Below the pieces are notes generated by a model. It was not told the origin of the DNA. It did not search any database and worked only from the letters and a program-made list of their open reading frames with translations. 64,000 nucleotides of DNA from an uncultured Gammaproteobacteria bacterium (GTDB lineage: Bacteria; Patescibacteriota; Microgenomatia; Daviesbacterales; UBA10151): positions 2,234-66,233 of the forward strand of contig CAYNFQ010000002.1 in NCBI GenBank assembly GCA_964396715.1. Reading direction: 5' to 3'. Below, in pieces: positions 4,210 to 61,700 of this stretch (position 1 is its first letter; each line of letters starts with the position of its first letter). Both the position numbers and the translations under genes were made by a program.

Positions 4210-4271
4210 GCGTAAATCGTAGCAGAGAAAAATAAGAATGCAATATGGAGGAAGTAGATCTTAATGGATAA

Positions 4272-4682
4272 TTATTGCTTATCAAGCGCCCAATTGGCCA
4301 GTTGGTCGGCTAAGGTATTTTGTGCGCGAGGAATGTGGCTGTAAACAACACCACCCAGCTCCATTGCTAAAATTTTAATTTGTTCAATCATTGGCTTAAG
4401 ATGTTTTGCTTTAACCTTAAACCTACCCGATAATTGTTCTGCCACCAGCTTTGAATCTGCAAAAAGTTCTATTTGAAGCTGTTCCTGCCCAGGTGCATAC
4501 TGCTTAATGTGTTTTAGCGCTGCCAAAACCGCAGTATATTCTGCTACATTGTTGGTGGTAATTCCAATTATTTTACCGACTTTGTGTAAAATATTGCCCT
4601 TCTCATCAGAAATCACAAAACCATAGGCTGCAGGTCCTGGATTACCGCGGGATGCTCCATCAGTAAATATGGTTAATTTCAT
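4272..4682 (-). CDS. rnhA: ribonuclease HI
   Basis: FTDGASRGNPGPAAYG signature and DEDD catalytic residues; 136 aa. Confidence 0.85.
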   Translation of the reverse strand: MKLTIFTDGASRGNPGPAAYGFVISDEKGNILHKVGKIIGITTNNVAEYTAVLAALKHIKQYAPGQEQLQIELFADSKLVAEQLSGRFKVKAKHLKPMIEQIKILAMELGGVVYSHIPRAQNTLADQLANWALDKQ

Positions 4683-19195: not shown

Positions 19196-20214
19196 CCTAC
19201 TGCCTCCTTTGCTGTGATTGTCAAAGGTGAGATCACCTGTCCTGTTAGTTCAATTTGCAAGACATCAAAACCGAAAGTATCTTTTTCCAATTCAATTTTA
19301 TAGGTGCCGTTTGGCAAAGGCGTTGCCCCTGAGAATTGGCCCAATTTGTTAGTTTTTAAGGCTCGGACAGGCAACCCTTCTTTATCGTAAATAACCACCA
19401 CCACGCCTTCCAGGGAGTTTCCGCGGGCATCCTTGATAATGCCGTTAATCACATTGGGAAAAGAAGTCAGGGCAATTTGGGTCGCTTTGCTTTTTTGTGG
19501 GGTGATAACTTTTACCTCAGGTTTGGCCATAGGCACAGGTATGGTTTGAGATTTTAGCTCCTCCTCGCCGACAGTTTCCAGTTGTTGTTTAATCTGCGAT
19601 GCCTGGTTGACCAAATTTTGCAAATCAGCCAAAACCTGGTTGACCTGCCCACTGTAATCAACAGGGATAGGTTTTGGTTTTTGCGCTTCTTCCCTGATAT
19701 GACTTAAGGTCCGTTCGGTTTGGATGATCTTCCATTGCAAATTTTGTGCCTCTTTTGCCAAATCAACAGTTTTTTTCAGATCATCCGCAGTAGGTATGGG
19801 TTCTGGCGGTATGACAGCCTGGCTGGGGACGGTGGTGGCTTCAGCCGGAGCTGGGGGATAAAGACCGGAAACATAGGTGACAAAGCGAGAACCAAACAGC
19901 GGGTCATTAACAGCAGTTTTGTTGTTTTTCTGCCAGACTCTTTTGGTGGGAGAATAAACAGCTTTTAAAAATGCCCCCAGCCAATAATCCAGAGGTCTTG
20001 AATTTATAGGCAAAAAAGCAAACGCAAAGCCCAAAGAGGCGGAAATTACAATCAGCGGCCAGGCAATTAAGGGATAGGCAGAGGAGACAAACACAAACAA
20101 AACATAGGCAATAGTTGAACCTGCTGCCAGATACATAAATTGTTTTAAGGTCATATCCCCGATCAGATGAAACTCAAAAGTGGTCACATTTTGCGGAATA
20201 GGATGCGGTTCCAT
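19192..20214 (-). CDS. VirB3/PrgI-like membrane protein fused to C-terminal carboxypeptidase-regulatory-like beta-sandwich domain
   Basis: N-terminal two-TM PrgI-like segment (FEFHLIGDMTLKQFMYLAAGSTIAYVLF). C-terminal GVVVVIYDKEGLPV...GTYKIELEKDTFGF CarbopepD_reg-like domain. ATGA overlap with the downstream VirB4-N ORF. Confidence 0.5.
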   Translation of the reverse strand: MEPHPIPQNVTTFEFHLIGDMTLKQFMYLAAGSTIAYVLFVFVSSAYPLIAWPLIVISASLGFAFAFLPINSRPLDYWLGAFLKAVYSPTKRVWQKNNKTAVNDPLFGSRFVTYVSGLYPPAPAEATTVPSQAVIPPEPIPTADDLKKTVDLAKEAQNLQWKIIQTERTLSHIREEAQKPKPIPVDYSGQVNQVLADLQNLVNQASQIKQQLETVGEEELKSQTIPVPMAKPEVKVITPQKSKATQIALTSFPNVINGIIKDARGNSLEGVVVVIYDKEGLPVRALKTNKLGQFSGATPLPNGTYKIELEKDTFGFDVLQIELTGQVISPLTITAKEAVG

Positions 20215-20270
20215 TAGGTAGGGTATAGCGTATAGAGAATAGGGTATAGTTGAATCTTCATAACTATAAG

Positions 20271-20660
20271 CTAAACGCTACTGACTAAACGCTTACTAAT
20301 ACCTCCTTTCTCTCTGTATACCATGACGCATAACATCTTGATGACTTCTAATAGTAATTCCTCCGATTTGCTAAAGCTCTCAGTTGGCGCTAACTGGAGT
20401 TCTTTAGAAATAACAAGCTGAGTATCCAATTCTAAAGCAGATCCGTAAGCAATAGCGTAAAATTGTAAGTATTCTTTATGTGATCGTCTAGCATAACCCT
20501 CTGCTATATTAGAAGGAATAGAAATTACTGCTCTGTGAATCTGTGAAATAATAACAAATTGCTCATTTCTGGGAAACAACGATGTTAATTTATATACCTC
20601 TTTGACTAATTGTATAGATTTTTGCCAGACAATTAATTCTTTATATGATTGTATTTTCAT
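20271..20660 (-). CDS. four-helix-bundle protein of the 23S rRNA intervening-sequence family (TIGR02436-like), copy 1
   Basis: WQKS...IAEGYAR...EYLQFYAIAYGSALELDTQL motif pattern; flanked by CTATACGCTAAACGC-type inverted repeats. Confidence 0.75.
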   Translation of the reverse strand: MKIQSYKELIVWQKSIQLVKEVYKLTSLFPRNEQFVIISQIHRAVISIPSNIAEGYARRSHKEYLQFYAIAYGSALELDTQLVISKELQLAPTESFSKSEELLLEVIKMLCVMVYREKGGISKRLVSSV

Positions 20661-20865
20661 AACTATACGCTAAACGCTACTCTCTATACGCTTCGTTATA
20701 CAATGTGAAAAAAATAATGGCAAGCAGCACAAAGGGGATCATTATGGGACAAATATGGTTAAATGACAAAATCCAAATGCCAAATTACAAATGAAATCTT
20801 AATTTCAAATTTTAAATTTTAGTCATTTGATATTGGAAATTTGAAATTCTTATGTTATTCTTAAT

Positions 20866-21053
20866 TTGTGGTGCACTAGTCCGATGTCATATCGGACCAA
20901 GGTGCAAAAAGGGAATCCGGTTAAAATCCGGAGCTGTGCCGCAACTGTGATTAGTTAGAGAATAGTAAATAGCGTACAGCGTTTAGTTATAAACAACTAT
21001 ACGCTAAACGCTTCTCTCTATACCCTAACTTTAAGTCAGGAGACCGACCACAA
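20866..21053 (+). ncRNA. cobalamin (B12) riboswitch
   Basis: Core AAGGGAATCCGGTTAAAATCCGGAGCTGTGCCGCAACTGTGA. B12-box-like AGTCAGGAGACCGACC. P1 candidates TTGTGGT/ACCACAA. Lies in the 5' leader of 21078..21986. Confidence 0.6.
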
Positions 21054-21077
21054 TTTAGATCCCGTAGCAGGAAAAAT

Positions 21078-29448: not shown

Positions 29449-31252
29449 TTAATCCTGGTCTTCTTGGCCACGAAAAACCACCTTTCCATCCAACGAAATT
29501 GCCCGCTTTATCAAGTACTTGAGTATGTTGAGGGTTCCAAATAGGTCCTGATGTTTCTCCAAAAAGCGCTTTATTCCATCCGCCTAATTGTCCGCCTACG
29601 GCGCCTCGTCCTTGAGCAAAATATCCCTGACCGCTTCTGATACCTCCGGAAATTTCCTGACCAAGCAACTGTCCTGCCTGGCCCATTTTCCCAATAGCGC
29701 TAACAACGATATCCGGAATTTTAGGTAATGCCACCAATGCCCCGAAAGCCAAAAGAATTTTAATAAACTCCAAATCCATGCCACCCAAAAGAGGAAAGGT
29801 TGTGTTGCCTACAATTTGTATTGGTTCCGCAGCCAAAGCAACAGGCATAAAATTGTTGCCTGCAGGACTTACTGCATCAGTAACAACTTTAAGCGGTCCA
29901 AAATCCTTCCCCAAAATAAATGCTATAAAATAAAAGACAGCCAAGACTGCGGGAAAGATTAAAATATTACCCAGCATATTTAATACCCAGTTAGTGGCAA
30001 TTCCTTGTCTGCCGGGCAGGGAAGCAGCCAGAAATTGAAAGGGAGCGCTGATTGTTAGGAAAATAATGGTCAGATAAGCGGTGATTAAACGCAGGAGCAG
30101 TTTGAGCATAGCGTATATTAGCGCAATCATAGCAATGAAACTTAATATAAATCCTAACCAAAATTGAGTAGTGGCAGCTACGATACCTCCGGCTACTGCG
30201 GTTATTAGCGGACCCAGCCACAGCCCCAAAGGGGGAGGAATAGCCGATGTTAAGGGACTGACAAATTGAGCGGCGATAAAGCCTGTAAAAAGCCTTAGCC
30301 ATCCCTGGACCTCTCCGCTTAGTTTATCAAATATAGCTATCACTGCATTTTCTGCTTTTTCTTGGGTAACTATGCTCACAAATTCACTAAAAATACTTAA
30401 AACACTATCGCCTGATATTTGCTGTACCAAGTTTGTTCTTTGCGGGTCATCTAATTTTCCTTGAGCTGCTGCAAAATAATAGCCGACTGCGTTAGTACCA
30501 ATAAAAGCAGTATCAGAAATAAATCCTGCCAAAAAGTAGGAAAAAGTAATTAAAATTAAACCAATAACTAACCCAGGTAGTGCTGCCTGGGCTGTGATGA
30601 CTGTCTGTGGGTTAATCCTTTGCCGAAACATCACCATCAGCCCGATTATGACAAAAATTATTATCATCACCAGATAAGAAATATTTCTGGAAACCTGCCA
30701 GAGGGATAAAATTGGACTTAAGACACTGGCCCCTGATCCACCTACTTGAGCCCGGGCCTCTTTTACAACTCCCAGGCCTTCTCCCAAAGATGCCAGGTAA
30801 TCTGCTGTTCTGATAGGAGGGTTTGCATAAAGTCCTGCTATAAGGCCTGTGGTGGTCCCTAAAAGCCCTCCTGAAAGATTAGCTGAGGAAAGCACCGGAA
30901 TGGACTGAATTGCTCCCTGGGCATTCTGGGTCAGCTGATAAGTTAGACAGGGTTGGCCGATTACTGATGAACCAATAGAAAGACAGGAAAAGGTATGGAA
31001 TATGTTATGCACCAGAAGGTCTGTGTATAAAGGGGAGGTGGGGGGGATGGTAGGTGGTAGTGAGTAGGTTGTAGGTTGTAGGGAAGAAGGAGAAGGAGTA
31101 GAAGTTTGGGCAAAAACAGGAGTGGTGAATAATGTCAAAATCAAAATGACAAATAACAAATGAATGACAAAGCCAAAATGACAAATAACAAATTTTTTGA
31201 AATTTAGATTTGATTTGACATTTGACATTTGAGCTTTGAGTTTTCCAACCAT
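29441..31252 (-). CDS. VirB6/TrbL-like polytopic membrane protein (putative T4SS channel component) with Gly-rich C-terminus
   Basis: Signal peptide followed by at least six TM helices and large loops; location next to the pilin and VirB4 loci. The first approximately 20 codons are encoded by AAATGTCAAAT-type repeats, so the real start may be internal. Confidence 0.4.
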   Translation of the reverse strand: MVGKLKAQMSNVKSNLNFKKFVICHFGFVIHLLFVILILTLFTTPVFAQTSTPSPSSLQPTTYSLPPTIPPTSPLYTDLLVHNIFHTFSCLSIGSSVIGQPCLTYQLTQNAQGAIQSIPVLSSANLSGGLLGTTTGLIAGLYANPPIRTADYLASLGEGLGVVKEARAQVGGSGASVLSPILSLWQVSRNISYLVMIIIFVIIGLMVMFRQRINPQTVITAQAALPGLVIGLILITFSYFLAGFISDTAFIGTNAVGYYFAAAQGKLDDPQRTNLVQQISGDSVLSIFSEFVSIVTQEKAENAVIAIFDKLSGEVQGWLRLFTGFIAAQFVSPLTSAIPPPLGLWLGPLITAVAGGIVAATTQFWLGFILSFIAMIALIYAMLKLLLRLITAYLTIIFLTISAPFQFLAASLPGRQGIATNWVLNMLGNILIFPAVLAVFYFIAFILGKDFGPLKVVTDAVSPAGNNFMPVALAAEPIQIVGNTTFPLLGGMDLEFIKILLAFGALVALPKIPDIVVSAIGKMGQAGQLLGQEISGGIRSGQGYFAQGRGAVGGQLGGWNKALFGETSGPIWNPQHTQVLDKAGNFVGWKGGFSWPRRPGLIK

Positions 31253-31295: not shown

Positions 31296-31676
31296 TTATA
31301 CAAATTCCAAATCTTTAATTCCCTGAAAATCTTTTTTATTTAAAGTGGCAAAAGAGGCTTTGTTAATGATGGCTGTGGCGGCAATAGCCGCATCTGCAAG
31401 ATCTAACCTAGAGATACTGTCTCTGGCAATTTCGCCTGCAAGTTTGGCTACTTCATATGTATAGGATAGAATCTTAAACAAGGAAATTGTATTTATCAGT
31501 TTTTTGTGACGTACTTCATCTTTAATGCTTTTCCCTTCATAAAGTTCTTGGATAGTGATTATAGAAATTGTCAGGTTTTTTTGTGGGTACTTATTGGCAA
31601 GCTTTCTTAAATGTGTTAGTTTATCATCCGGCTGACGTAAATGATCAATAATAATGCTGGTATCTACGATTACCAT
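31296..31676 (-). CDS. vapC: PIN-domain toxin VapC
   Basis: IVDTSIIID...D...ATAI PIN acidic residue pattern; overlaps the upstream antitoxin. Confidence 0.7.
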   Translation of the reverse strand: MVIVDTSIIIDHLRQPDDKLTHLRKLANKYPQKNLTISIITIQELYEGKSIKDEVRHKKLINTISLFKILSYTYEVAKLAGEIARDSISRLDLADAAIAATAIINKASFATLNKKDFQGIKDLEFV

Positions 31677-31975
31677 GCCTTTTTTCTTTCTCTGGATGCT
31701 TTAAGCTCAATTTTCCTTCTTCTTTTTTCTGTTTCAGGCCAGTCATCTCCTGCCCAGGCTCCTTGTGTGCTTTTCAGAATTTCAAGGAAAACTTCTCTCT
31801 TATTGCTTTTTTCTTCCTCAGTCACCACCTCATTTACCGGGTACATATGTATTCCGCCATTGCTGACGATCACATTTAAAAGTTGACCTGCAGAAATATT
31901 TAAATCATCCCTGATTTTTTTAGGAATGACAATCTGACCTTTTATGTTTGGGGTGACTATTGTGCCAATATTCAT
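31670..31975 (-). CDS. vapB: AbrB/MazE/SpoVT-type antitoxin VapB
   Basis: KGQIVIPKKIRDDLNISAGQLL swapped-hairpin motif. Confidence 0.6.
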   Translation of the reverse strand: MNIGTIVTPNIKGQIVIPKKIRDDLNISAGQLLNVIVSNGGIHMYPVNEVVTEEEKSNKREVFLEILKSTQGAWAGDDWPETEKRRRKIELKASRERKKAW

Positions 31976-35115: not shown

Positions 35116-35546
35116 CCGATTATTTTTAAATCACTAATATTAAGTAGTCTTGCCAATAAAAACTGTAATATTAAAAATGCAAACATCAGTATTATAAACC
35201 CTACTATAGCATGGGTGATCATCTGTCTTGCCGAATCCATATCTTCTTTATTCCCTCCGGCCTTTAAAAACCTGAATGCTCCCAGCAGGAAATAAAGTAT
35301 TACCAAAAATGCGGCTACTTGAAATAAAGGCTTGACTAGCCTGGAGGTTCCACAACCTAAAGAGGTTATATCTCCAAAACCAAATTTAGAACCAATATCA
35401 ACCCCCTTTGCAGTTGTAGAGGCTGTATTTACCTCACTCTTGCATGGATCTTGTTCTTGGTCCGCGGCAAAGACAGGAGTAACAAGCAGTAGATAACTTG
35501 TAAGCAAAACTGTAAACTGTAAACTGTAAACTGTAACCTTTCTCAA
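35112..35546 (-). CDS. VirB2/TrbC-like T4SS pilin paralog 4
   Basis: Same signature (GAFRFLKAGGNKEDMDSARQMITHAIVGFIILMFAF). Probable TTG start at 35546 after a GGAGG RBS. The ORF track's ATG at 35639 would overlap the upstream gene by 97 bp. The signal peptide contains an (AAACTGT)x4 tandem repeat. Confidence 0.45.
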   Translation of the reverse strand: MRKVTVYSLQFTVLLTSYLLLVTPVFAADQEQDPCKSEVNTASTTAKGVDIGSKFGFGDITSLGCGTSRLVKPLFQVAAFLVILYFLLGAFRFLKAGGNKEDMDSARQMITHAIVGFIILMFAFLILQFLLARLLNISDLKIIG

Positions 35547-35875
35547 AATGGCGAGCCTCCTTTTGGTGGTAATATTTGAGCAGCAAAGGTGGCAATCAGG
35601 TAGGCTGTCAGTATCACCATCAGTCCGATTATGGCCCATTTAATTCTTTCTCTGGCTTTGGCCAGCTCTTCTTTTTTGCCTGAGGCTAAAATGTACTGGA
35701 ACGCCCCCCAAAGCAGCCAGTAAAAAGCCATAAAGATGGCAATATAAAAAGCAATATTTAAAAGACCGGATAAAACATCAGCCAGTTTAGCATTTTCGAA
35801 TTTAAAATTAAGGGCTTTTAAGCCGGAATCTTTTAGTAAATCGTTTAACATAAGTTTAGTAATGCCAAAGCTCAA
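35543..35875 (-). CDS. VirB2/TrbC-like T4SS pilin paralog 5
   Basis: WGAFQYILASGKKEELAKARERIKWAIIGLMVILTAYLI. Confidence 0.55.
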   Translation of the reverse strand: MSFGITKLMLNDLLKDSGLKALNFKFENAKLADVLSGLLNIAFYIAIFMAFYWLLWGAFQYILASGKKEELAKARERIKWAIIGLMVILTAYLIATFAAQILPPKGGSPF

Positions 35876-35977
35876 AGTCCAAATGTCAAATGAATTTCAA
35901 AGCCTAAATGACAAATTTTTTGTCTTTGGCATTTAGATTTGATTTGTCATTTGTAATTTGGATTTTGACATTTTACT

Positions 35978-36376
35978 TTACTTTCTGATAATTGCCGAAA
36001 AAATTAAAGTCAATTCCTGAGCTTCTTGCCAATGCTTCCTTGCTTCCGGTGCAAGGTTTGGTACAGCTTTTGCCACCATCCTGAGCCAATGTTTGGTTTC
36101 CTTGGCTTCTTTTTTACAAATGCCTATTTTATGTTTGAAGTCTTTTTTGCTTTCCGCCCCGTCTGCTTCGCAATAGTTAGCTCCTATACTGGTGCCTGAT
36201 CGGACTAGTTGGCTGATAACAGGCAGTGTTACGGGATTTTGCGGTATTTTTTTAGCAAACTCCAGAGTCTTTTCCCCAAACTTGGCAGTCCTTTCCTCAA
36301 GATCATATTTCTTTTTAGTATTTGGATTTTGACCTTCATTTGTAATTTGAAATTTGTAATTTGACATTGTCATCAT
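35978..36376 (-). CDS. four-helix-bundle protein of the 23S rRNA intervening-sequence family, copy 2, embedded in the pilin operon
   Basis: GTSIGANYCEADGAESKKDFKHKIGICKKEAKETKHWL motif. ATGA overlap with the upstream pilin-adhesin gene. N-terminus is encoded by AAATGTCAAAT repeats. Confidence 0.7.
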   Translation of the reverse strand: MMTMSNYKFQITNEGQNPNTKKKYDLEERTAKFGEKTLEFAKKIPQNPVTLPVISQLVRSGTSIGANYCEADGAESKKDFKHKIGICKKEAKETKHWLRMVAKAVPNLAPEARKHWQEAQELTLIFSAIIRK

Positions 36377-37875
36377 GGTTCTCCAAACTGTTCCCCCAGT
36401 CCCAGTATACCAACTCCAATAATCTGAAGCAGCAAAACTGCAAAAATAACAAACAACAGTCCAATTATGGCAGATTGGAACCTGTCTCTTCCTGTCTGTA
36501 AAGTTTCCGGGTTTCCGGCAGAAGTGACCATCTGGAATGCTCCCAAAAGCATCATTAAAAAAGCCAACCCTCCGGAAATTCCCAGAATAAACTTTAAAAA
36601 GTCCTTAATGAATCCCACCGGTGAGGTATGTATACAGCCAATGGCTGTTTGGATGCCTGGATTTTTTGGATCTGCTGTATCACATGGCGTCCCTCCTGCT
36701 GTGGTTGGCGGACCTTGTGGTGTGGTTGTGGTTGGGGTTTGTTGCCCTGATCCTGGTTGAGTTATAACTCCTGTTGGAGCTGGTTGATCAGACACAACTG
36801 TTAGTTGAGCTCCTCCCTGAATGCTTGAGTTACTTAAACTTGTGACAATGATAGAATAAGAACCACCGCTTAACCCGTCTCCGAGTTGTAAATTATAAGT
36901 ACATCCTGGCCCTGAACAACTAAAAGTATTAGCCAGTAGCTTGCTGCTTATTTCAACTTTATAGGTTTCATTTGTTGAGCCGTCAACTAGCTTGATCTGT
37001 ATTGTTCTATTTTTAGAAGCACTTGCTTGTATAGTAGAAGGGTTAATTTCTACTTTTAAAGCAGTTGGAACAGGACCTTTGACTGTGAATGTTTTTTGAA
37101 TTTTATCTGATATTTCTTTTGGTATTGAGAGCGAAGTTACACCAACAACGTATGATTGATTTTCAATAAGGTTACTGCCACTAAGCTCGAATGTAACTAA
37201 TTTAGTTCCGGATACGTAGTCTAAATTTTCATCACCCTTTGTCTCACCTTTTAAAATAGTGCAAGTTTCTTTGTTAGGATCACAAAACAACTTAATATAC
37301 ACAATTGCAGCAGACCCGCCAGCCATTGTTATTCTAATTTCATAATTTGAAGCCAGAGGTTTTGTGAGTGCTACTACTACAATTACTTTTTCTGCTTTAG
37401 TAATTTCTGTTGAGGATAGTTGTATTGTTGGTATACCGATTAGTTTCTCCCAAGCGTAAGAAACCCAACCCGTTTGACCTCCTGCCCTCAGGTCCCAAGT
37501 GTCTTTGTACCCATCTCTTAAAAAAACCCTTGCGGATGTATCAGGTTGTCCATTAATCCACCTGACTACGTTCTTGATCAGAATGTTAGTATTGCCTGTT
37601 GTGCTAGCGTCAAGTTCCCTGACTCCTATACAAGGTCCGTAAGTAAATGGTCCTCTTCTTGGACAATCTCCGTCATGGGGAGTTTCAAATGTATATTTTT
37701 TATCAGGATTTTTTGTTTCAACAGTAATTTGCATATCACTATTGCTCCCGAAACTTGCATTCTCCAAGAGCTCTACTGGTCCGAACAGAATTTTGTCAGC
37801 AGCCATGACAGTGGTAGGTCTAAAAGAAACGAGAGTTAAAAAAATAGCAATTGCAGAAATAAGTATTTTGGACAT
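36373..37875 (-). CDS. large secreted protein with N-terminal Ig-like/adhesin-like region, Thr/Pro-rich linker and C-terminal VirB2/TrbC-like pilin domain
   Basis: Signal peptide; beta-rich 350 aa; PTTTTPQGPPTTAGG linker; C-terminal LGAFQMVTSAGNPETLQTGRDRFQSAIIGLLFVIFAVLLL matches the neighbouring pilins. Confidence 0.5.
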   Translation of the reverse strand: MSKILISAIAIFLTLVSFRPTTVMAADKILFGPVELLENASFGSNSDMQITVETKNPDKKYTFETPHDGDCPRRGPFTYGPCIGVRELDASTTGNTNILIKNVVRWINGQPDTSARVFLRDGYKDTWDLRAGGQTGWVSYAWEKLIGIPTIQLSSTEITKAEKVIVVVALTKPLASNYEIRITMAGGSAAIVYIKLFCDPNKETCTILKGETKGDENLDYVSGTKLVTFELSGSNLIENQSYVVGVTSLSIPKEISDKIQKTFTVKGPVPTALKVEINPSTIQASASKNRTIQIKLVDGSTNETYKVEISSKLLANTFSCSGPGCTYNLQLGDGLSGGSYSIIVTSLSNSSIQGGAQLTVVSDQPAPTGVITQPGSGQQTPTTTTPQGPPTTAGGTPCDTADPKNPGIQTAIGCIHTSPVGFIKDFLKFILGISGGLAFLMMLLGAFQMVTSAGNPETLQTGRDRFQSAIIGLLFVIFAVLLLQIIGVGILGLGEQFGEP

Positions 37876-37952
37876 TAGTTTCAGCTTACCACAATTATGT
37901 AACTAATTGTGGCTTAGCACATTTTGGCTGGAAATGGTAAAATTTTAAGATT

Positions 37953-39659
37953 ATGCCCCGTTTTCTTGCTGTATTTTTACTTGTTACTTTTGCCTTGTTA
38001 CTTGTTACTTTTCCTGTCCATGCTGATGAAATAGAGGATTTACAAAAGCAAATAAATTCTCTGAATGAGGAATATCAAAGAGTAGAGAAAGCCAAAGCTC
38101 CTTTGGAAGGACAGCTGGATTCCTTAAAAAGGCAGCTGGCCCAAATTCAAGCCACCTTAGACAATTTATCAGCCAATATAACAATAAAACAGCAGGAGCT
38201 GGATTTAAGAGAAGATAAATTGGCTTTCCAGCAGGCCCTTTTGGAGGAAAGAGTCAGGGCATATTATATCCGCTCATACCTGACAGATCCCCTTTTGGTG
38301 ATTCTTTCCTCCTTTAAGGCCGGTGATTTATTCCGCGAGCTATCCTACAGACAAACCGTGACCAGGGAAGACAAACAGGTGATCACCTCCATTACCAACC
38401 AGGTCTTAGATCTTTTAACTGAAAAAGAAAAACTGGAAAAAGATAAAGCCAGGCTCGCTCTTTTACAAGCTGATGTTGATAAAAATGCCAAGTTTTTGGG
38501 AGGGGAAATCACCAAGGCAAAGGTGTATCAGCAAGAATTATCCACAAAAATTGCTCAACTGACTGCCCGCCAGCAGGCAATCATTGCCCAAAGGCAGGCT
38601 GCTTTGGGTCTGCCTACCTCATTAGGTGCAGGTCCACTTTTCTGCACTGATGATAGAAAACTTGACCCGGGCTTTAGACCGGCCTTTGCCTTTTTCACTT
38701 ACGGTATTCCTCACAGAGTGGGTATGAACCAATACGGAGCATACGGCAGATCCCAGGCAGGCCAAAATCATGAAGATATCTTAAGAGCCTACTTTCAGGA
38801 TTTTTCTTTTGAGCAAAGACCTAACATCAATATTTCTGTTTCCGGCTACGGTTCAATGCCTTTGGAAACATATCTTTTGGGGATCTATGAAATGCCGGAC
38901 TCCTGGCCGGCTGAATCCCTCAAAGCTCAAGCTATTGCTGCCCGCTCTTATGCCTTATCCTATACCAACAACGGTTCCAAGGAAATTTGTACCACTCAAC
39001 AGTGTCAGGTTTACAAGGGTGGCAATAAAGGAGGCAATTGGGAACAGGCAGTAAAAGCAACTGAAGGCAAAACTATGATCTCAGGTGGCTCGCCTGTTAC
39101 TGCCTGGTATTCTTCAACAGACGGCGGGTACACATACACAGCCTCGGATATTGGCTGGGGAGGACGCTCTTTTACCAAAAGGTTAAGGGATACAAGCGGG
39201 GATATAGGTAGTTTTGGGGATCTTTCTTCCAAAGCTTATGACCGTGATTCCCCTTGTTTTTATGCGGCCCAGGGCTTTAGGCCTGAGTATGCAAAGTCTG
39301 CCTGGCTAAAATCAGAAGAGGTAGCGGATATTGCCAATGTGGTAATGCTTGTCAAAAGAGATAGCGGGGTTTCTGCGCATATTTACCAGACAGATAAACC
39401 TAATCCCGAGGGAGGGGAAACATGGAATGCGGATAGGGTCAAGGAGGAGTTAAGAAATAAAGGGGGCACTCCCTTTAACAGCGTATCAGGGGTATCTGTG
39501 GGGGTGGATTTCGGATCCGGCATGGTCACATCTGTCACAGTTTCAGGGGACAGGGGCTCTGAAACATTTAACGGGTCAGAATTTAAAAACTTCTTTAATC
39601 TTCGTGCCCCTGCCAATATCCAAATAGTAGGACCGCTCTTCAACGTTGAGACAAAATAA
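37953..39659 (+). CDS. SpoIID/LytB-domain peptidoglycan-remodelling protein with N-terminal coiled-coil
   Basis: Signal peptide, coiled-coil (approximately 35-200), then the SpoIID/LytB motif region YLLGIYEMPDSWPAESLKAQAIAARSYAL...QQCQVYKG. Confidence 0.65.
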   Translation: MPRFLAVFLLVTFALLLVTFPVHADEIEDLQKQINSLNEEYQRVEKAKAPLEGQLDSLKRQLAQIQATLDNLSANITIKQQELDLREDKLAFQQALLEERVRAYYIRSYLTDPLLVILSSFKAGDLFRELSYRQTVTREDKQVITSITNQVLDLLTEKEKLEKDKARLALLQADVDKNAKFLGGEITKAKVYQQELSTKIAQLTARQQAIIAQRQAALGLPTSLGAGPLFCTDDRKLDPGFRPAFAFFTYGIPHRVGMNQYGAYGRSQAGQNHEDILRAYFQDFSFEQRPNINISVSGYGSMPLETYLLGIYEMPDSWPAESLKAQAIAARSYALSYTNNGSKEICTTQQCQVYKGGNKGGNWEQAVKATEGKTMISGGSPVTAWYSSTDGGYTYTASDIGWGGRSFTKRLRDTSGDIGSFGDLSSKAYDRDSPCFYAAQGFRPEYAKSAWLKSEEVADIANVVMLVKRDSGVSAHIYQTDKPNPEGGETWNADRVKEELRNKGGTPFNSVSGVSVGVDFGSGMVTSVTVSGDRGSETFNGSEFKNFFNLRAPANIQIVGPLFNVETK

Positions 39660-39724
39660 ATTTCAAATATCAAATGTCAAATGAAATCTAAATGCCAAAT
39701 TTTTAAAATATTTGGATTTTAACA

Positions 39725-40333
39725 TTGATTTGTCATTTGGATTTTGTCATTTGGATTTTTATGGAGTATACTCCAATCATCATGTTCTCATCCTATGTTG
39801 AAAATCCCTCAAACTGCCGTTTTGAGGGCCAGGACACTGATGAAAAGATTCTTTTGCTTTTAAGGGCCCACCCCATCACCAATTTAAGATGGATAATGCC
39901 TGCGATTTTACTTTTCTTTGCCCCATTTTTTATACAGGAAATTTTTTTACTTCTGAATTTAGATTTATCAAAAGTACCGGAAACTTTTGCCATAGTTTTT
40001 TTAATCATTAACTATCTTCTGGTTTTAACTATTGTATTTGAAGGATTTTTATACTGGTACTTTAATGTCTACATTGTCACTGATAAAAATATTGTGGATG
40101 TGGATTTTCACTCCATTCTATTTAAAAATATTGATGTGGCCCCCTTAAGAAACATTGAGGATACCTCATCATCAATGGGTGGAATTTTGCATGCCGTCTT
40201 TCACTATGGTGATGTTTTTATTCAAACAGCCGGAGCATCCAGAAATATTGATTTCATATCTGTGCCAAGACCGCACCATGTGGCTGATTTTATCTTGGAT
40301 GAAGCACACAAAATTTATGGAAGGGGGACGTGA
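39725..40333 (+). CDS. hypothetical membrane protein (bPH/YdbS-like?)
   Basis: Two or three TM helices followed by a soluble domain; start may be the Met at 39758. Confidence 0.35.
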   Translation: MICHLDFVIWIFMEYTPIIMFSSYVENPSNCRFEGQDTDEKILLLLRAHPITNLRWIMPAILLFFAPFFIQEIFLLLNLDLSKVPETFAIVFLIINYLLVLTIVFEGFLYWYFNVYIVTDKNIVDVDFHSILFKNIDVAPLRNIEDTSSSMGGILHAVFHYGDVFIQTAGASRNIDFISVPRPHHVADFILDEAHKIYGRGT

Positions 40334-43669: not shown

Positions 43670-44107
43670 TAATGGGTGGAGATGGGCGGTTTGAACCGCC
43701 GTCCAAAATTGTGACTTTTAAAACTTCTACAAGCTTATCTTTACTATATTTTTGAGTGTTAATTTGTAACCGTAAAGAAGGAAGATTAACACTTAATCCA
43801 AATTTCTTGGTTCTGATTATGGATTAGATATCAGAAGCTGCATCCTGACTGGGTACATTACTTTAGGTTCTAGCCAGAAAAAGAATTCTAAAATAGATGC
43901 TTTAAGTTCTAGCGTATGCAACAGGAGTAAATACTCCAGTTACACCTGCAAAAAGTTTTGCAACTTCTTGCTCTGCCATTGCTTTGGCATCACGGACAAG
44001 TTTATTGCCGTTTGTTGTTTGAAACAGTATTTTACGTTTAATGTTTCCTTAACAGCTTGCAGTTTTTAAAGAGCAATCCTGTCGAGACTATACATCCCCA
44101 GGTCATT
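43670..44107 (-). ncRNA. ssrA: tmRNA (SsrA)
   Basis: 5' end GGGGAUGUAUAGUCUCGACAGGAU matches the tmRNA consensus GGGGcUGauUcuGGAUUCGACGGGAU. 3' tRNA-like end GGACGGCGGUUCAAACCGCCCAUCUCCACC(CA). Adjacent to smpB. Confidence 0.7.
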
Positions 44108-58155: not shown

Positions 58156-59262
58156 TTGTTACTAACCATTATGGCTAAACACAAGAAAGAAGTACAACTG
58201 GATGCTAAAAAATTATTAAAACTCGGTCAGGAACGGGGTTTCATTACCCAGGAGGAAATTTTGCAAATTTTCCCCAAGCCTGAAGAGGAAATTGAGAGTT
58301 TAGATGAATTCTATATTAAATTGATCAATGAAAACATTGATGTTTTTGAAACAACAGCAGAGGAGCTGGATGCCGATTCTAAAACCGCCACAGAGCTGGA
58401 GAAAGAATTGGAGCTGTTGTCCACTTTGGAAGAAGGCTCAGTGACAGATCCGGTCAGGCAATATTTGCGGGATATTGGCAAAATTCCTCTGCTAACAGCT
58501 ACTGATGAGATAGAATTGGCCAAAAAAGCGGAAAAAGGGGAGAAAAAAGCCAGAGACAGATTAACCTCTGCCAATTTGAGGCTGGTTGTCTCCATTGCCA
58601 AAAAATATGTCGGACGCGGCATGAGTCTTTTGGATTTGATTGAGGAGGGGAATATCGGGTTGATGAGGGCGGTTGATAAATACGACTGGAGAAGAGGCTA
58701 TAAATTCTCCACCTATGCCACCTGGTGGATTAGACAGGCTATCACCAGGGCCATTGCAGACCAGGCCAGGACCATCAGGATTCCGGTTCACATGGTGGAA
58801 ACCATCAACCGTTTTAATAGGACGCAAAGGAGGCTGATGCAGGAATTGGGTAGGGAACCGGCCCCTGAGGAGGTTGCCAAAGCTTTGGAAATTGACCCCA
58901 GCAAAGCCCGTGAGATTATCAAAGTTTCCCAAGAACCTACTTCTTTGGAAACGCCAGTGGGGGATGAGGAGGATTCTCATTTAGGGGATTTTATTGCTGA
59001 CCAGGGTTTACAGCCGGATGAGCAGGCCACTCGTGAGCTTTTAAAAATTCATTTAGATGAGGTGTTGGATTCGCTTTCCCCCAGGGAAAAAAGAGTGCTG
59101 CAGCTAAGATTTGGTTTGGAGGATGGGAAACAAAGGACATTGGAGGAGGTGGGGAAAGAGTTTGGGGTTACCAGGGAAAGAATCAGACAAATTGAGGCCA
59201 AAGCCATCAGGAAATTAAAGCACCCCACCAGGGCCAAAAAACTGCGGGACTACTTAGAATAA
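58156..59262 (+). CDS. rpoD: RNA polymerase sigma-70 factor RpoD
   Basis: Region 2.4 [25 protein letters not shown]; region 4.2 HTH. Confidence 0.9.
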
Positions 59263-59282
59263 TGTAAAATGTACAATGTAGA

Positions 59283-59648
59283 ATGTACAAAGAAGCTCCA
59301 ATTTATCACATCCGAGAGCGAAGCCTAAAATTCAGTATTCGAATAGTTCAACTAGTACGAACTTTCCCAAAAGACACTTCAGGATTCGCTATTGGCAATC
59401 AAATTATCAGGTCTGGAACAAGCGTGGGTGCAAATATAGAAGAGGCTCAAAACTGTGGATCTAAAAAGGAATTTATCCATACCATGACGATTGCTTTAAA
59501 AGAAGCTAGGGAAACAGAATATTGGCTTAAAATTACAAATGAGGTAAAATTAACCGATAAAGATTTGGTAAGTAACTTACTTTTAGAAGTAAACGAACTT
59601 ATCAAAATCTTAACTTCGATTATTAAGAAGTCAAAACTTAATAGTTGA
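59283..59648 (+). CDS. four-helix-bundle protein of the 23S rRNA intervening-sequence family, copy 3
   Basis: GTSVGANIEEAQNCGSKKEFIHTMTIALKEARETEYWL; flanked by inverted GTACAATGT/TGTACAAAG-type repeats. Confidence 0.75.
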   Translation: MYKEAPIYHIRERSLKFSIRIVQLVRTFPKDTSGFAIGNQIIRSGTSVGANIEEAQNCGSKKEFIHTMTIALKEARETEYWLKITNEVKLTDKDLVSNLLLEVNELIKILTSIIKKSKLNS

Positions 59649-59733
59649 TCGCACCTTAAATTTTATTTCTTTGTACAGTTTATATATTGTATTTTTATAC
59701 ATTTTACATTGTAAATTGTACATTGACCTATAT

Positions 59734-59997
59734 TCCCCTGTAGCTCAACGGTAGAGCGGGATCCTGTAAAATATTGCAGCTTCTTCGAAAAATCGGAGTT
59801 GAAAAATTGGGTTAATTGTCGGGAAACCTTTAAAATGGTAATCCGCAGCCAAGGTCCGATGTAATATCGGACAAGGTTCAGAGACTATACGCCTGAAGCC
59901 TAAAGCGAAAGCAATGGTTATGAGATAGTCCAAGTCCTGATGAAAATCGGGAGCACTTGTAAGATCAAGGTTCGTGGTTCGAATCCACGCGGGGGAG
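59734..59997 (+). tRNA. tRNA-Asn(GUU) interrupted by a 192-nt group-I-like intron (exons 59734-59767 and 59960-59997)
   Basis: Exons assemble to TCCCCTG-TA-GCTC-AACGGTA-GAGC-G-GGATC-CTGT^TAA-GATCA-AGGTT-CGTGG-TTCGAAT-CCACG-CGGGGGA-G, closely resembling E. coli tRNA-Asn. 5' exon ends in U and the intron ends in G. Confidence 0.6.
59768..59959 (+). ncRNA. group-I-like intron in the tRNA-Asn anticodon loop
   Basis: AAUCCGCAGCCAAG...AAGGUUCAGAGACUAUAC ... GAUAGUCC P7 pairing. Candidate P1 between exon CUGU and intron GCAG. Confidence 0.55.
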
Positions 59998-60023
59998 CTG
60001 AGTGGCACTTAATATACCCAAAA

Positions 60024-61700
60024 TTAGGCAATAGCGGGAATAAGGGAGGGTCTGACTTTCTCTATGTCTTCTCTTATCTGTTGTACTAGTCTAAAATCCT
60101 CAAATGTTTTGATAGTACATGCTAATTGTGCAGTTGTATTAAAGTTATGATTCTCGGCACTTGTTACACCAAGGTGAGCCTCATTAAGAACCTGAAGTGC
60201 CGGTGTATATTCAACTTCCACGATTTTCTTGTCTTTTGCCCATATCTTTTGAAAGAAGAAGTGCAGGTAGGCCCTTTTATGGTCTATATCAGCTTTAGCA
60301 TAGCTTCTAGCGATATTTCTAGTTAATTCCAATACGTCATTTACTACCGATATATCAACTGTTCTTATCTTCTCTACCTCTGCTAATTCCTTTTGAATAG
60401 CAAGCATTTCTGCATCTAATTTAGCATTAAGCCTTAGCAGTAATTCAGCAGGTATCTTGTTATTACCATAATCGGTTTCTATCTTTTCTTTTCTCATTTC
60501 AATAGCATCGCGCCTGTTACAGATACCCTTTCTGAAAACTTTTACTCTCTCAATACTGTCTGTATAAACCTCATTTATGTATTTATTAACTGCATCAATG
60601 AAATCTTGCTTAAATTCCAGTTTTTCAACTTGATCCTGTACTTGCTGTTCGAGATCAGTTAGCAATACATACCTTGAGGGACACTTGCCACGTTTCCCAG
60701 TTTGACTGCAGTGGTACATTCCAATTCGGCCATTACCTGTTTTATATTTTTCGTGATAGTGCCATTCAGCCACATACCTGCGACCACAGTCTTTACAAAA
60801 TACAATTCCCCTAAGCAGAAAGTTGTGTTTTCTTTTTCTCAATCCAAAAGCACCCTTTTCATCCAGGATTTTCTGTACTAAATCAAAAGTTTCTTTATCA
60901 ATTATTGGCTCATGCTTACCCATACCCTCCAAACCTCCATGATGCATCCAACCCCAATGAAATTTGTTTCTTAACATTGTGTGAGTAACTGAAAATTGTA
61001 ATGGTCTTCCTTTCTTGCCCAAAACACCATGCTTATTTAGATACTGCCGAATATCGTAAATTGAATAGTTACGAGTTGCATACATTTTAAATGCTTGAGT
61101 AATAAACGGAGCAGAGTTAGGGTCAGGGACTACAATTTTTTTATCATAAGAACCACTTGGGTTAGGATTAAGTATGTTTTTATAGCCTAAAGGAGCAACG
61201 GAAGGATAATAACCTGCTTTGAATTTCTCTGCGGCTGTTTGTTTGACTTTGAAGCTGGTCATTCGTGGATGCAGGGCATTTACGACCGCCATCATTTCAT
61301 CCATTGTCTGGCTTATTGGATCGTCATCAACTATTCCTGTGAGGGGAATGACTTTAACTCCGAATTTTTTCAACTCACTTTTGATATATAGGTATTCGAA
61401 AGTATTGCGGGAGATACGGGAGCTATCTTGAACGATTAAATAGTCAATGTCTTTTTTAGAACACCTAGCTAAAAGAGCTTGGAGTCCTGGCCTATTCATC
61501 GAAGTTCCCGATATGCCATTATCAATGTAACAATCTTCGGCAAGATAACCACCTAAATCTTCTATCTTTTCGAGTATCTTTATCTGCTGGGTTTCAATGC
61601 TTAGATTATCCTTTTGTTCCAACGTAGATACCCGGCAATATGAAAGACAGGCAGGTTTTTTATTGTTTTCGCTGATTGTTTGGTTATCTGATGATCGCAT
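60024..61700 (-). CDS. large serine recombinase (resolvase/invertase N-domain + recombinase + zinc-ribbon domains)
   Basis: Catalytic CLSYCRVSTLEQ...; approximately 560 aa typical of phage/ICE serine integrases. Confidence 0.85.
   Translation of the reverse strand: MRSSDNQTISENNKKPACLSYCRVSTLEQKDNLSIETQQIKILEKIEDLGGYLAEDCYIDNGISGTSMNRPGLQALLARCSKKDIDYLIVQDSSRISRNTFEYLYIKSELKKFGVKVIPLTGIVDDDPISQTMDEMMAVVNALHPRMTSFKVKQTAAEKFKAGYYPSVAPLGYKNILNPNPSGSYDKKIVVPDPNSAPFITQAFKMYATRNYSIYDIRQYLNKHGVLGKKGRPLQFSVTHTMLRNKFHWGWMHHGGLEGMGKHEPIIDKETFDLVQKILDEKGAFGLRKRKHNFLLRGIVFCKDCGRRYVAEWHYHEKYKTGNGRIGMYHCSQTGKRGKCPSRYVLLTDLEQQVQDQVEKLEFKQDFIDAVNKYINEVYTDSIERVKVFRKGICNRRDAIEMRKEKIETDYGNNKIPAELLLRLNAKLDAEMLAIQKELAEVEKIRTVDISVVNDVLELTRNIARSYAKADIDHKRAYLHFFFQKIWAKDKKIVEVEYTPALQVLNEAHLGVTSAENHNFNTTAQLACTIKTFEDFRLVQQIREDIEKVRPSLIPAIA

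Follow-up and report, generated by a model that had tools for sequence, protein, structure and literature searches.

The ORF at 35978..36376 (-) of the window, the 64-kb stretch of DNA that was analysed as a whole, is probably cargo, carried by a promoterless cassette of the IVS type that rides on a T4SS-pilin operon of Candidatus Daviesbacteria. According to this reading, a gene with a four-helix-bundle core of ~110 residues (S23p / 23S_rRNA_IVP) would lie between terminal inverted repeats of ~49 nt, each a tandem array of 7-nt units, and would have been inserted in sense and without a promoter into the spacer of a few nucleotides between the genes of an adhesin-pilin and of the first small pilin. 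The whole cassette, delimited by comparison with relatives that have an empty site (L107, L006), comprises ~530 bp (about 35853..36382 (-)) and consists of a 5' arm, the ORF, a repeat copy and a 3' arm.

The longest ORF encodes 132 aa, or 129 aa from the probable conserved start ATG at 36367. With 53.6 bits against PF05635 (cutoff 33.8) and 71.7 bits against TIGR02436 (cutoff 24), the 132-aa product lies above the curated cutoffs and belongs to this family by sequence. It also does so by fold: the AF2 monomer model (pLDDT 87.6) consists of four helices (26-41, 50-72, 77-104 and 106-131) that form a bundle like those of 2RLD and 2GSC. A profile search against the PDB returned 2RLD with E = 2e-17, and Foldseek with the model returned 2RLD (TM 0.74/0.90) and 2GSC (TM 0.72/0.83), with Avd 4DWL ranking next. 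The 2RLD entry contains five chains, and the S23p protein of Xanthomonas is described as a homopentamer (PMC4990558). The S23p/IVS protein family is large, with more than 7,800 clusters at 50% identity. The PADLOC defence-system models gave no match for this copy and one marginal match (E = 0.0078) for a paralogue in the window (copy 1); a defence-system reading was dropped for want of PADLOC support. Together with neighbours that carry PF18895, the family and fold matches bear out the preliminary description of an IVS-type four-helix-bundle gene in a pilin operon.

The family is the closest relative of Avd in sequence and fold (4DWL and 8UB7 appeared in the fold search), copies 1 and 3 of the window weakly match NF033474/PF22296, and a variable adhesin is encoded next door. 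One could hence think of an Avd-like accessory protein of a diversity-generating retroelement (DGR) that diversifies this adhesin. However, no reverse transcriptase was found among the operon neighbours or the ten large ORFs scanned. The target copy has no match to the Avd models, and the scores of copies 1 and 3 (22.4 and 17.4 bits) fall far short of the cutoff of 80. A repeat scan confined to the cassette region (35700-36500) showed heptamer arms only and no pair of template and variable repeats there. In view of the missing reverse transcriptase and the sub-threshold Avd scores this explanation was rejected as extremely improbable.

The junction between the adhesin stop and the ORF start reads ...GGAGAACC ATG A TG ACA ATG TCA AAT. 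A homologue search and alignment showed that homologues mostly start with MSN-K-Q, which makes codon 4 (ATG 36367..36365), and not the first ATG, the probable conserved start. Translation would then begin 5 nt past the adhesin stop, probably without any overlap. The ATGA overlap with the adhesin stop described previously is indeed present in the sequence, but the conserved start probably lies 9 nt further in. Residues 1-22 of the ORF are encoded by heptamers, lie outside the family profile (which matches from residue 27-28) and are predicted to be disordered. As had been proposed, the first ~20 codons are thus repeat-encoded, by NNCAAAT heptamers, and the same heptamers occur again past the ORF stop. 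A heptamer-coded N-terminus is kept in thousands of homologues from other organisms.

The repeats form three segments. The 5' arm (36320..36368 (-)), which holds the probable start codon and codons 3-19, represents both the left terminal inverted repeat and the first copy of a direct repeat of NNCAAAT heptamers. The second, direct copy of this arm (35925..35982 (-)), located just past the stop and detected by repeat scan and folding, is the proximal arm of a local 125-nt hairpin. The 3' or distal arm (35858..35915 (-)) is the right terminal inverted repeat and ends 6 nt ahead of the pilin ATG. With at most one mismatch, AAATGTCAAAT occurs 16 times compared with 4.7 expected, a number reached in 0 of 100 shuffles, and heptamer-phased CAAA/TTTG runs were found 19 times compared with 0.1 in shuffles. 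A 61-nt segment (36308-36368) recurs directly at 35919-35979 (72%), and the arms at 36320-36368 and 35861-35909 are 73% complementary. This is in line with the repeats noted earlier on both flanks of the gene, which proved to be inverted arms plus a direct repeat. As RNA, the 125-nt palindrome (35858-35982) has an MFE of -37.8 kcal/mol (z = -6.45), while the duplex of the 5' arm with the distal arm reaches -31.3 kcal/mol over 41 pairs (shuffles -14.3 +/- 3.8). The unconstrained RNA fold of this copy favours the local hairpin over a stem that encloses the ORF. Promoter- and terminator-like matches at the cassette were no commoner than in shuffles, and no T-tract follows the hairpin.

Upstream of the cassette lies the gene of a 500-aa 'pilin-adhesin' (36373..37875 (-)), which has a C-terminal T4SS_pilin domain (PF18895, residues 418-486) and is syntenic with L006 and L107-L110. 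The downstream gene (35543..35851 (-)) encodes the first small T4SS pilin of 102 aa, also a PF18895 protein, for which ATG 35851 is a more likely start than TTG 35875. Altogether, PF18895 was found in the upstream 500-aa ORF and in five downstream ORFs. In two syntenic relatives (L006, L107) the slot is empty and the adhesin gene is followed by the pilin gene over a spacer of 6-9 nt (9 nt in L006) without repeat remnants; L107 aligns to 36665-36383 and 35852-35538 of the window and to nothing in between. These empty slots support the earlier view of an inserted cassette rather than a fixed ancestral operon member. Cassettes of the window type occupy the slot in L008/L009 and L108. L110 carries a 61%-identical cassette with TTTACAA/TTTTCAA arms, and L106 and L109 carry an unrelated PF05635 lineage (28-32% identity to the window copy) with different arms. 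The preliminary description had suggested a check of orthologous pilin loci. Relatives often do hold a PF05635 gene here, as expected for an ancestral member, but it is not the same one and two of the slots are empty. The slot is therefore reused by unrelated cassette lineages and is a recurrent landing place.

The flanks of L106 are 83-90% DNA-identical to those of L008/L009, yet its cassette module is homologous to that of L109; here entire slot modules have visibly been swapped through homologous recombination in the conserved flanks. Synonymous divergence between the window and L108 was 0.93 for the adhesin C-terminus, 0.31 for the four-helix-bundle gene and 1.27 for the pilin; the corresponding values for L008 were 2.19, 0.625 and 0.68. 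The cassette is an insertion/deletion polymorphism whose synonymous divergence is at odds with that of its flanks.

Sequence comparison shows strong purifying selection on the protein as well as on the two outer arms. The dN/dS ratio of the ORF against L008 is 0.107. The 5' arm is 98-100% identical at the nucleotide level to those of L008 and L108, for which dS of the ORF is 0.31-0.63, and the 3' arm is 96.5% identical to both; the middle arm copy (35925-35982), unlike the two outer arms, evolves at a near-neutral rate (83-89% identity). Among six orthologous loci, identity was 0.55 at third-codon positions, 0.33 in the linker and 0.39 in the spacer, compared with 0.80 in the 5' arm and 0.915 in the 3' arm; conservation of the arms thus exceeds that of synonymous sites. 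Their GC content remains at 0.31-0.33 in a host of 0.58 GC. Strong purifying selection on ORF and arms at orthologous sites over dS > 0.6 goes beyond what would be expected of a purely selfish immobile insert; this counts to some extent against an IVS-type cassette and hints at a role at the level of the host.

One alternative is a dedicated member of the pilin/T4SS operon. It would act on the pilins or their mRNA, for instance as a chaperone or as a regulator of the adhesin:pilin stoichiometry, and its slot would be kept filled by selection. The slot is filled in six of the eight sampled lineages, even by non-orthologous PF05635 genes, and protein and arms are under purifying selection. Several close homologues lie directly upstream of pilin genes, both of type IV N_methyl pilins (L010-L012, L026) and of T4SS pilins (L014-L019), and copy 1 of the window heads a PrgI/VirB4-like operon. 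We nevertheless consider a dedicated function unlikely. Two syntenic relatives with clean spacers lack the gene, genes of the same subfamily occur within a tRNA cluster and a ribosomal-protein operon and have neighbours from over 100 unrelated families, and the homologous family is present in rRNA insertions. Of the 130 co-directional neighbours that were scanned, only a handful belong to pilus or secretion families. A family-wide pilin association was dropped because the neighbour families are highly diverse and the five loci seen first, most of them linked to pilins, were unrepresentative; a family-wide pilin function of PF05635 cassettes is not supported. The suggested co-expression with pilins agrees with a probable co-transcription: the gene runs in sense and takes up the spacer, and signals for a promoter or terminator do not exceed chance. 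A functional tie is unsupported.

The cassette reading was extended to 80 related metagenome loci, whose gene calls are crude longest-ORF calls. An unusual context for this family had been assumed for the window copy; this was not the case, since the family's genes in these loci are typically wedged in sense between members of more than 100 Pfam families (121 + 111 neighbour families). Hosts other than pilin operons include a ribosomal operon (S17|cassette|L14) and a tRNA cluster; Rfam searches on 20 loci with large gaps revealed this tRNA cluster only and no rRNA context. Where the flanks were co-oriented, 52 cassettes were in sense and 2 in antisense (p = 1.6e-13), and 89% of the cassette genes were co-directional with their neighbours compared with a baseline of 75%.

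The plan with inverted arms was present in 62-65 of 73 loci. Arms of ~49 nt made of heptamers extend from -65 to -17 relative to the conserved core, where the 5' arm covers the start codon, and from +16 to +66 relative to the stop, so that the 3' arm begins ~16 nt past it; the neighbouring genes are 6 and 12 nt away. A lag of 7 was the top periodicity in 61 of 79 5' zones and 50 of 77 3' zones, and this periodicity is absent within the ORF. The inverted-repeat score between 5' and 3' zones exceeded the 99th percentile of shuffles in 65 of 73 loci, and its median was 40 within the same locus versus 25 across loci (p = 3e-18). Arm boundaries rest on local alignment. When long zones were folded as RNA duplexes the pairing ran on too far, and only the energy difference between same-locus and cross-locus pairs was used. 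Two loci with two cassettes each (L082, L087) contain unrelated heptamers per cassette, with each cassette's own arms matched (in L082, AGCGGAA x4 / TTCCGCT x4). These data show that arms co-vary within a cassette and differ between cassettes. Direct repeats of 28-61 nt surround some cassettes, among them window copies 1 and 2, L106 and L011, and were found in 17 of 73 loci overall.

Two further cassettes in the window share this plan and use different heptamer families. Cassette 1 (20213..20701 (-); ORF 20271..20660) is located at the head of the PrgI/VirB4-like operon and has GCGTATA/GCGTTTA arms, with a 58-nt direct repeat (81%) and inverted arms that are 72-89% complementary. Cassette 3 (59261..59724 (+); ORF 59283..59648), situated between a sigma-factor-like gene and an intron-containing tRNA, has ATGTA[ACG]A arms of 31 nt that are 87% complementary and 402 nt apart. 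Their proteins are 26% and 34% identical to that of the copy in the pilin operon. The copies in the window are old and divergent (26-34% identity), and nothing points to transposition within this genome in recent times.

Gene-less palindromes of CAAAT-type heptamers were found at three other junctions. One (39659..39760 (+)) lies between the stop of SpoIID and the next gene and is absent there in L006. Another (31130..31252 (-)) overlaps the predicted N-terminus of a 603-aa ORF, which has no Pfam match and is named after the VirB6 position that it takes in the operon; at this site the palindrome of L006 consists of other heptamers. The third (20760..20850 (-)) is located between cassette 1 and a cobalamin riboswitch. 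No rRNA is present in the 64-kb window. These solitary palindromes might indicate ordinary genome-wide REP-like intergenic elements that stabilize mRNA, two of which enclose a gene by chance. This seems very improbable, since the heptamer-coded N-terminus is conserved in thousands of homologues, the arms keep 31-33% GC in a 58% GC host, and arms differ among the three window cassettes and between two in one locus but match within each. The comparison of same-locus with cross-locus arms contradicts it as well.

Alternatively, the cassette could be mobile or recombining at the DNA level, in a MITE-like or integron-like manner. The repeats would then be sites where a recombinase or transposase acts in trans or where homologous exchange takes place; pairing of the RNA would play no part, and the ORF would be a mere passenger. 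Terminal inverted repeats, gene-less palindromes of the same heptamers, the direct repeats around some cassettes and the exchange of modules between lineages all fit. So do the mismatches within the arms: in the sense transcript, G.U and A.C mismatches numbered 72 and 90 (p = 0.18), without significant bias. Pairing at the level of RNA thus gains no specific support, and roles at the level of DNA are an equally good fit. On the other hand, there is no recombinase nearby; the one serine recombinase lies far off and belongs to a tRNA-linked island. Neither target-site duplications at the arm ends (32 loci inspected) nor near-identical copies (in the 64 kb of genome seen) were found, and a 52:2 sense bias and strong purifying selection on the ORF are unexpected for a passenger. 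On balance we regard a purely DNA-level cassette as rather unlikely, if less so than a dedicated operon function.

For the favoured IVS-type cassette, we propose that transcription would occur by read-through of the operon and that translation would start within the A-rich 5' arm by termination-reinitiation after the adhesin gene. The two outer arms would serve as cis-acting sites. By analogy with 23S rRNA IVS, they most likely pair in the transcript and loop out the cassette for RNase III-type processing; a putative second role is that the protein, presumably pentameric, may also bind the arms in a 7-nt register. In the window copy the extra arm past the stop would form the more stable local hairpin and so keep the start codon exposed. 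The link to pilins would be positional, reflecting a favoured slot in a strongly transcribed operon rather than a family-wide function. Against this model stand the lack of a mobility enzyme in or beside the cassette and of a target-site duplication, the RNA fold of the window copy with its preference for the local hairpin, and the missing G.U bias.

The S23p/IVS family has been without a function since the 1990s; it has passed either for an oddity found in fragmented 23S rRNA or for Avd, the helper of DGRs. In candidate-phyla bacteria, the PF05635 gene comes in a defined cassette with matched arms of 7-nt repeats and a start within the 5' arm, and it is nearly always in sense in operons. The findings tie rRNA IVS to a general element and offer RNase III looping-out and protein binding in a 7-nt register as testable hypotheses. 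More speculatively, and with considerable doubt, PF05635 genes with heptamer inverted arms may form a very large undescribed class of self-contained cassettes that colonize the transcribed spacers of many operons, among them those for rRNA, tRNA, ribosomal proteins and pilins. The best-known landing site of this class would be the 23S rRNA IVS. Each subunit of the ring-shaped protein would recognize one unit of the protein's own 7-nt arrays, and processing, self-regulation or movement of the cassette would be driven in this way. If true, this would give the long-orphan protein a function and explain the spread of IVS. The literature searched holds no account of such cassettes outside rRNA, which is no proof that none exists. 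For annotation, the presence of a PF05635 gene in an operon is no reason to assume that it works together with the adjacent genes, such proteins have a repeat-coded N-terminus of ~20 residues, and N-termini of neighbouring genes are sometimes called within arms.

Among known systems, the closest is the 23S rRNA IVS with an S23p ORF of Coxiella burnetii, Leptospira and others (PMC4990558). In Coxiella this ORF is preceded just 5' of its ATG by three tandem heptamers (GACAGAT), and the IVS is excised by RNase III (PMC4990558); 23S_rRNA_IVP ORFs also occur in 16S and 23S insertions of CPR bacteria (PMC11270868). Shared features are the PF05635 protein, tandem heptamers at its start, terminal inverted repeats able to enclose the ORF in a stem (in the window and in 65 of 73 loci), sporadic presence, sense insertion into a strongly transcribed unit and a size of ~430-530 nt. 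The host differs: the window cassette is flanked by protein-coding pilin genes (ribosomal-protein and tRNA operons in relatives) and not by helix 25/45 of 23S or any other 23S/16S rRNA helix. Unlike the Coxiella ORF, which is decaying and probably untranslated, the window ORF is under strong purifying selection. Excision by RNase III, known for Coxiella, is a prediction for the window cassette.

Avd of DGRs (Bordetella phage bAvd; 4DWL, 8UB7) has the same fold, and 2RLD, 2GSC and Avd were all solved as assemblies of several chains. Since Avd contacts nucleic acid as part of an RNP, one may reasonably guess that the window protein binds nucleic acid too. The window protein differs from Avd in its own inverted arms, in having neither an adjacent reverse transcriptase nor template and variable repeats, and in scores far below the NF033474/PF22296 cutoff. 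With MITEs, and with REPINs and their RAYT, the cassette shares its short size, terminal inverted arms, scattered gene-less palindromic derivatives and a gene flanked by repeats on which it possibly acts. It differs from them in encoding a small helical bundle without a known catalytic motif, in its arms of 7-nt units, in the missing target-site duplication and in copies that are divergent rather than near-identical (in the 64 kb seen). Integron cassettes are likewise promoterless small ORFs followed by an imperfect palindrome (~60-125 nt), inserted in sense, with different cassettes per site. Here, however, repeats lie on both sides of the ORF and the sites are ordinary operon spacers. There is no IntI or attI/Pc, no tyrosine integrase was found among the scanned proteins, and RYYYAAC/GTTRRRY (attC) core sites, judged by eye, are missing; with no integrase and arms on both sides, an integron-cassette reading was dropped. 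Tandem heptamer repeats of cyanobacteria, also named STRR, offer a last comparison. Like the TAACTGA repeats of cyanobacteria and Beggiatoaceae (PMC4679880), the window arms are intergenic 7-nt arrays near start codons with a patchy distribution; whereas those are described as direct arrays without an ORF family, the arms found here are matched, inverted and placed around a PF05635 gene.

The 132-aa ORF at 35978..36376 (−) in this Candidatus Daviesbacteria MAG scored above the curated cutoffs of PF05635 (23S_rRNA_IVP) and TIGR02436 ("four helix bundle protein"), with the match beginning at residue 27–28. The AlphaFold model contains four confidently predicted helices and a repeat-encoded N-terminal stretch that is disordered; in structural comparisons 2RLD and 2GSC ranked first and the DGR protein Avd next. 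By sequence and fold this ORF (copy 2) is a PF05635/TIGR02436 member; two paralogues lie within the window, copy 1 (20271..20660, −) and copy 3 (59283..59648, +). The preliminary description had the gene overlapping the stop of the upstream adhesin gene by ATGA. This holds for the longest ORF, the minus strand at the junction reading ...GGAGAACC-ATG-ATG-ACA-ATG-TCA-AAT.... Most homologues, however, start with MSN-K-Q, so that the conserved start is probably ATG 36367, 5 nt beyond the adhesin stop.

The adhesin, a 500-aa ORF (36373..37875, −), carries a T4SS_pilin domain at its C-terminus. Five small T4SS pilin ORFs lie downstream of copy 2; further along the operon come an M23 peptidase and an ORF of 603 aa that has no Pfam match and that we call VirB6-like from its operon position only. 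In the related metagenomic loci L006, L009 and L107–L110 the C-terminal pilin domain of the adhesin is kept; its N-terminal ~300–400 aa are barely alignable and lengths range from 329 to 500 aa. Neighbouring genes of the pilin operon differ 3–4 fold in dS, and the operon is a recombination mosaic. The T4SS/pilin cluster also contains a toxin of the PIN type together with a small protein resembling an antitoxin, and the position of this pair varies between relatives. In the window the pair, judged by sequence appearance, separates the M23 peptidase from the VirB6-position ORF (31296–31975, −); in L108 it lies between SpoIID and the adhesin (706–1411; PF01850 (PIN) and PF04014 (MazE_antitoxin)). 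It is another mobile small module of this locus.

Codons 3–19 of copy 2 consist of NNCAAAT heptamers, which bears out the repeat-encoded N-terminus of the preliminary description. Repeats on both sides of the gene were likewise found: the 5′ arm (36320..36368) recurs straight after the stop (middle arm, 35925–35982) and, inverted, at 35858–35915 (distal arm). The motif had 16 matches compared with 4.7 expected, and heptamer-phased runs numbered 19 versus 0.1 in shuffles. Middle and distal arms fold into a 125-nt hairpin (−37.8 kcal/mol, z = −6.45). Pairing energies with the distal arm were −31.3 kcal/mol for the 5′ arm and −39.2 kcal/mol for the middle arm next to it, and in an unconstrained fold the distal arm pairs with the middle arm, not the 5′ one. 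Heptamers also occur elsewhere in the operon. Four tandem TTACAGT units right after the first pilin stop (35507–35537, minus strand), a direct array without an inverted partner, precede or enter the signal peptide of the next pilin and push its longest-ORF start too far upstream. A heptamer palindrome overlaps the predicted N-terminus/signal peptide of the 603-aa ORF in the window (31130–31252) and in L006 (9040–9160), with heptamers of the CAAAT and the TTAGAAT/TAAGCAA type, respectively; either a hydrophobic leader can tolerate being encoded by such palindromes, or the starts have been predicted wrongly.

All three window copies share a common plan, in which a 5′ arm spans the start codon and the stop is followed by an inverted arm, built from different heptamers (copy 2, NNCAAAT; copy 1, GCGTATA/GCGTTTA; copy 3, ATGTA[ACG]A). 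In copies 1 and 2 the 5′ arm is also repeated in direct orientation, across the stop or immediately behind it. Scanning metagenomes with a subfamily alignment yielded 80 loci of 60–74% identity. A lag of 7 was the top periodicity in 61/79 upstream and 50/77 downstream zones and was absent within the ORF. The upstream zone matched the downstream zone, taken as its reverse complement, beyond the 99th percentile of shuffles in 65 of 73 loci, and inverted-arm scores were far higher within a locus (median 40) than across loci (median 25, p = 3e-18). Where the arms aligned with a score of ≥30 (62 loci), they are ~49 nt long, span −65 to −17 from the conserved YDLEERT core and +16 to +66 past the stop, and leave 6 and 12 nt to the genes on either side. 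Two loci contain two different PF05635 cassettes less than 3 kb apart (L082, 707–1030 and 3561–3887; L087, 1812–2141 and 3531–3857), each with its own heptamer family, unrelated between cassettes and matched within each; one of these cassettes, from a GC-rich host, has near-perfect arms of four AGCGGAA upstream and four TTCCGCT downstream. The 7-nt register and the pairing of the arms are conserved, whereas the arm sequence is not. In L011/L012, the PF05635 stop is immediately followed by a second copy of the cassette 5′ end (CAAATGACAAATCAAGCC...CAAAATCCCAATGACAAAAAG; L011, about 915–1020); this repeat is split by a GC-rich 33-nt hairpin, and the inverted arm follows ~230 nt further on. The arrangement may represent a nested insertion or a second-cassette remnant.

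The ORF of copy 2 showed a dN/dS of 0.107 (versus L008). Identity to L008 and L108 was 96.5–100% for the outer arms, 83–89% for the middle arm, 85–92% for the ORF core and 75–86% for the flanks. In a second set, six orthologous loci from an organism with 58% GC and with the cassette between a SIS and a HAD gene, mean pairwise identity was 0.80 in the 5′ arm and 0.915 in the 3′ arm, compared with 0.55 at third codon positions, 0.33 in the N-terminal linker and 0.39 in the post-stop spacer; the GC content of these arms was 31–33% despite the GC-richer host. Conservation and low GC content of the arms suggest functional cis elements rather than decaying scars, and the conservation argues that the cassette is still active or in a role selected by the host.

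The spacer between adhesin and first pilin (the slot) was compared in eight lineages with a syntenic SpoIID/adhesin/pilin locus. It is empty in L006 (first pilin 64% identical to the window; 9-nt spacer without repeat remnants) and L107 (75%; 6-nt spacer, lacking the segment 36382..35853 of the window). The same cassette is present in L008/L009 (90%; 4HB gene product 89% identical) and L108 (69%; 4HB 95%), and in L110 (70%) a PF05635 gene of 61% identity is flanked by TTTACAA/TTTTCAA arms. L106 (84%) and L109 (72%) carry an unrelated PF05635 lineage, 32% and 28% identical to the window copy, respectively, and 51% to each other. The L106 flanks share 83–90% DNA identity with L008/L009; its 571-nt middle is non-homologous to these and alignable with L109. 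Synonymous divergence of the 4HB gene is incongruent with that of adhesin and pilin: dS for adhesin C-terminus, 4HB and pilin was 0.93, 0.31 and 1.27 against L108, and 2.19, 0.625 and 0.68 against L008. Empty and filled slots, the L106 mosaic and the incongruent dS values thus demonstrate that the slot is polymorphic, that no fewer than two unrelated lineages of cassettes have made use of it, and that cassette modules have been exchanged between lineages. Of the two origins considered in the preliminary description, inserted cassette or ancestral operon member, the second is not borne out: some family member is often present in relatives, but not by vertical inheritance as part of the operon. 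In L106, a 28-nt direct repeat (93%; 384–411 and 768–795) brackets the cassette. The start region of the PF05635 ORF is thereby almost the same as that of the pilin downstream (ATGACACATAATACAATTAA/ATGATACATAATACAATTAA). The repeat resembles a footprint of recombination in which the initiation region of the downstream gene was duplicated; no inverted arms were found in the L106 cassette.

Between co-oriented neighbours the cassette lay in sense in 52 cases and in antisense in 2 (p = 1.6e-13); it was co-directional with its neighbours in 89%, against a baseline of 75% at the same loci. Beside the cassettes we found 121 Pfam families downstream and 111 upstream, with just a handful of pilus/secretion genes. 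Sites include a tRNA cluster, regions upstream of type IV pilins, a position with a giant VWA protein on one side and T4SS pilins on the other, and a ribosomal operon, where the cassette lies between S17 and L14 with its start abutting the S17 stop. This last case is one organism seen in many samples (L020–L025, about 3756–5404), in which an unannotated 163-aa ORF comes next and no inverted arm was found directly beyond the PF05635 stop; hence, this cassette may carry two genes. Over the window cassette and its surroundings (35400–38100), matches resembling promoters or terminators were no commoner than in shuffles; most plausibly, the cassette has no promoter and relies on host transcription. 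Near copy 1, a cobalamin riboswitch (20852–21066, +; 63.6 bits) upstream of the ORF at 21078 is divergent from the cassette. Beyond copy 3, a tRNA gene missed by ARAGORN is split by a group I intron (59733–59998, +; Rfam RF00028, 81.9 bits). The rule that the exon ends in U and the intron in G gives a 73-nt spliced product consistent with tRNA-Asn(GUU); other splice choices give other identities. The Rfam P1/P2 assignment (59671–59730) probably swallows the 3′ arm of copy 3. This tRNA is followed by a large serine recombinase (60024..61700, −) and by small ORFs of phage-like appearance, which suggest an island integrated there. The window also contains a tmRNA gene (43674–44099, −; 100.1 bits).

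The 23S IVS of Coxiella burnetii has an S23p ORF, inverted-repeat ends, RNase III excision and three tandem heptamers (GACAGAT) just before the ATG (PMC4990558), and PF05635 ORFs are on record in CPR 16S/23S insertions (PMC11270868). From these precedents we propose that the arms pair within the operon transcript, so that the cassette is looped out and undergoes processing of the RNase III type. The ORF would be translated from a start in the 5′ arm only when this arm is free of pairing; in copy 2, stronger middle–distal pairing, by which the middle arm outcompetes the 5′ arm for the distal one, would leave the start codon open. More speculatively, the ring-shaped protein could bind the 7-nt arrays, as its closest characterised relative, Avd, is a nucleic-acid-binding part of an RNP. 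Arm mismatches showed no G·U bias in the sense strand (72 vs. 90), which counts against an RNA-only view, and direct repeats of 28–61 nt flanking some cassettes look like a footprint of DNA recombination. No mobility enzyme was found by a large-ORF scan, and no target-site duplication at the inspected arm ends.

Taken alone, a single gene coupled into a pilin operon is a modest finding; the main yield is a conserved, very widespread cassette architecture and one operon slot that is recurrently used. Identity with Avd was rejected, as the proteins scanned included no RT and the score against the Avd model was sub-threshold; readings as an integron cassette or a typical MITE were also rejected. 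In the searchable literature we found no description of this design outside rRNA. For PF05635, a family without a function for three decades, the architecture is of real interest. In its working the cassette most closely resembles the rRNA IVS, but without the residence in rRNA that defines the latter.
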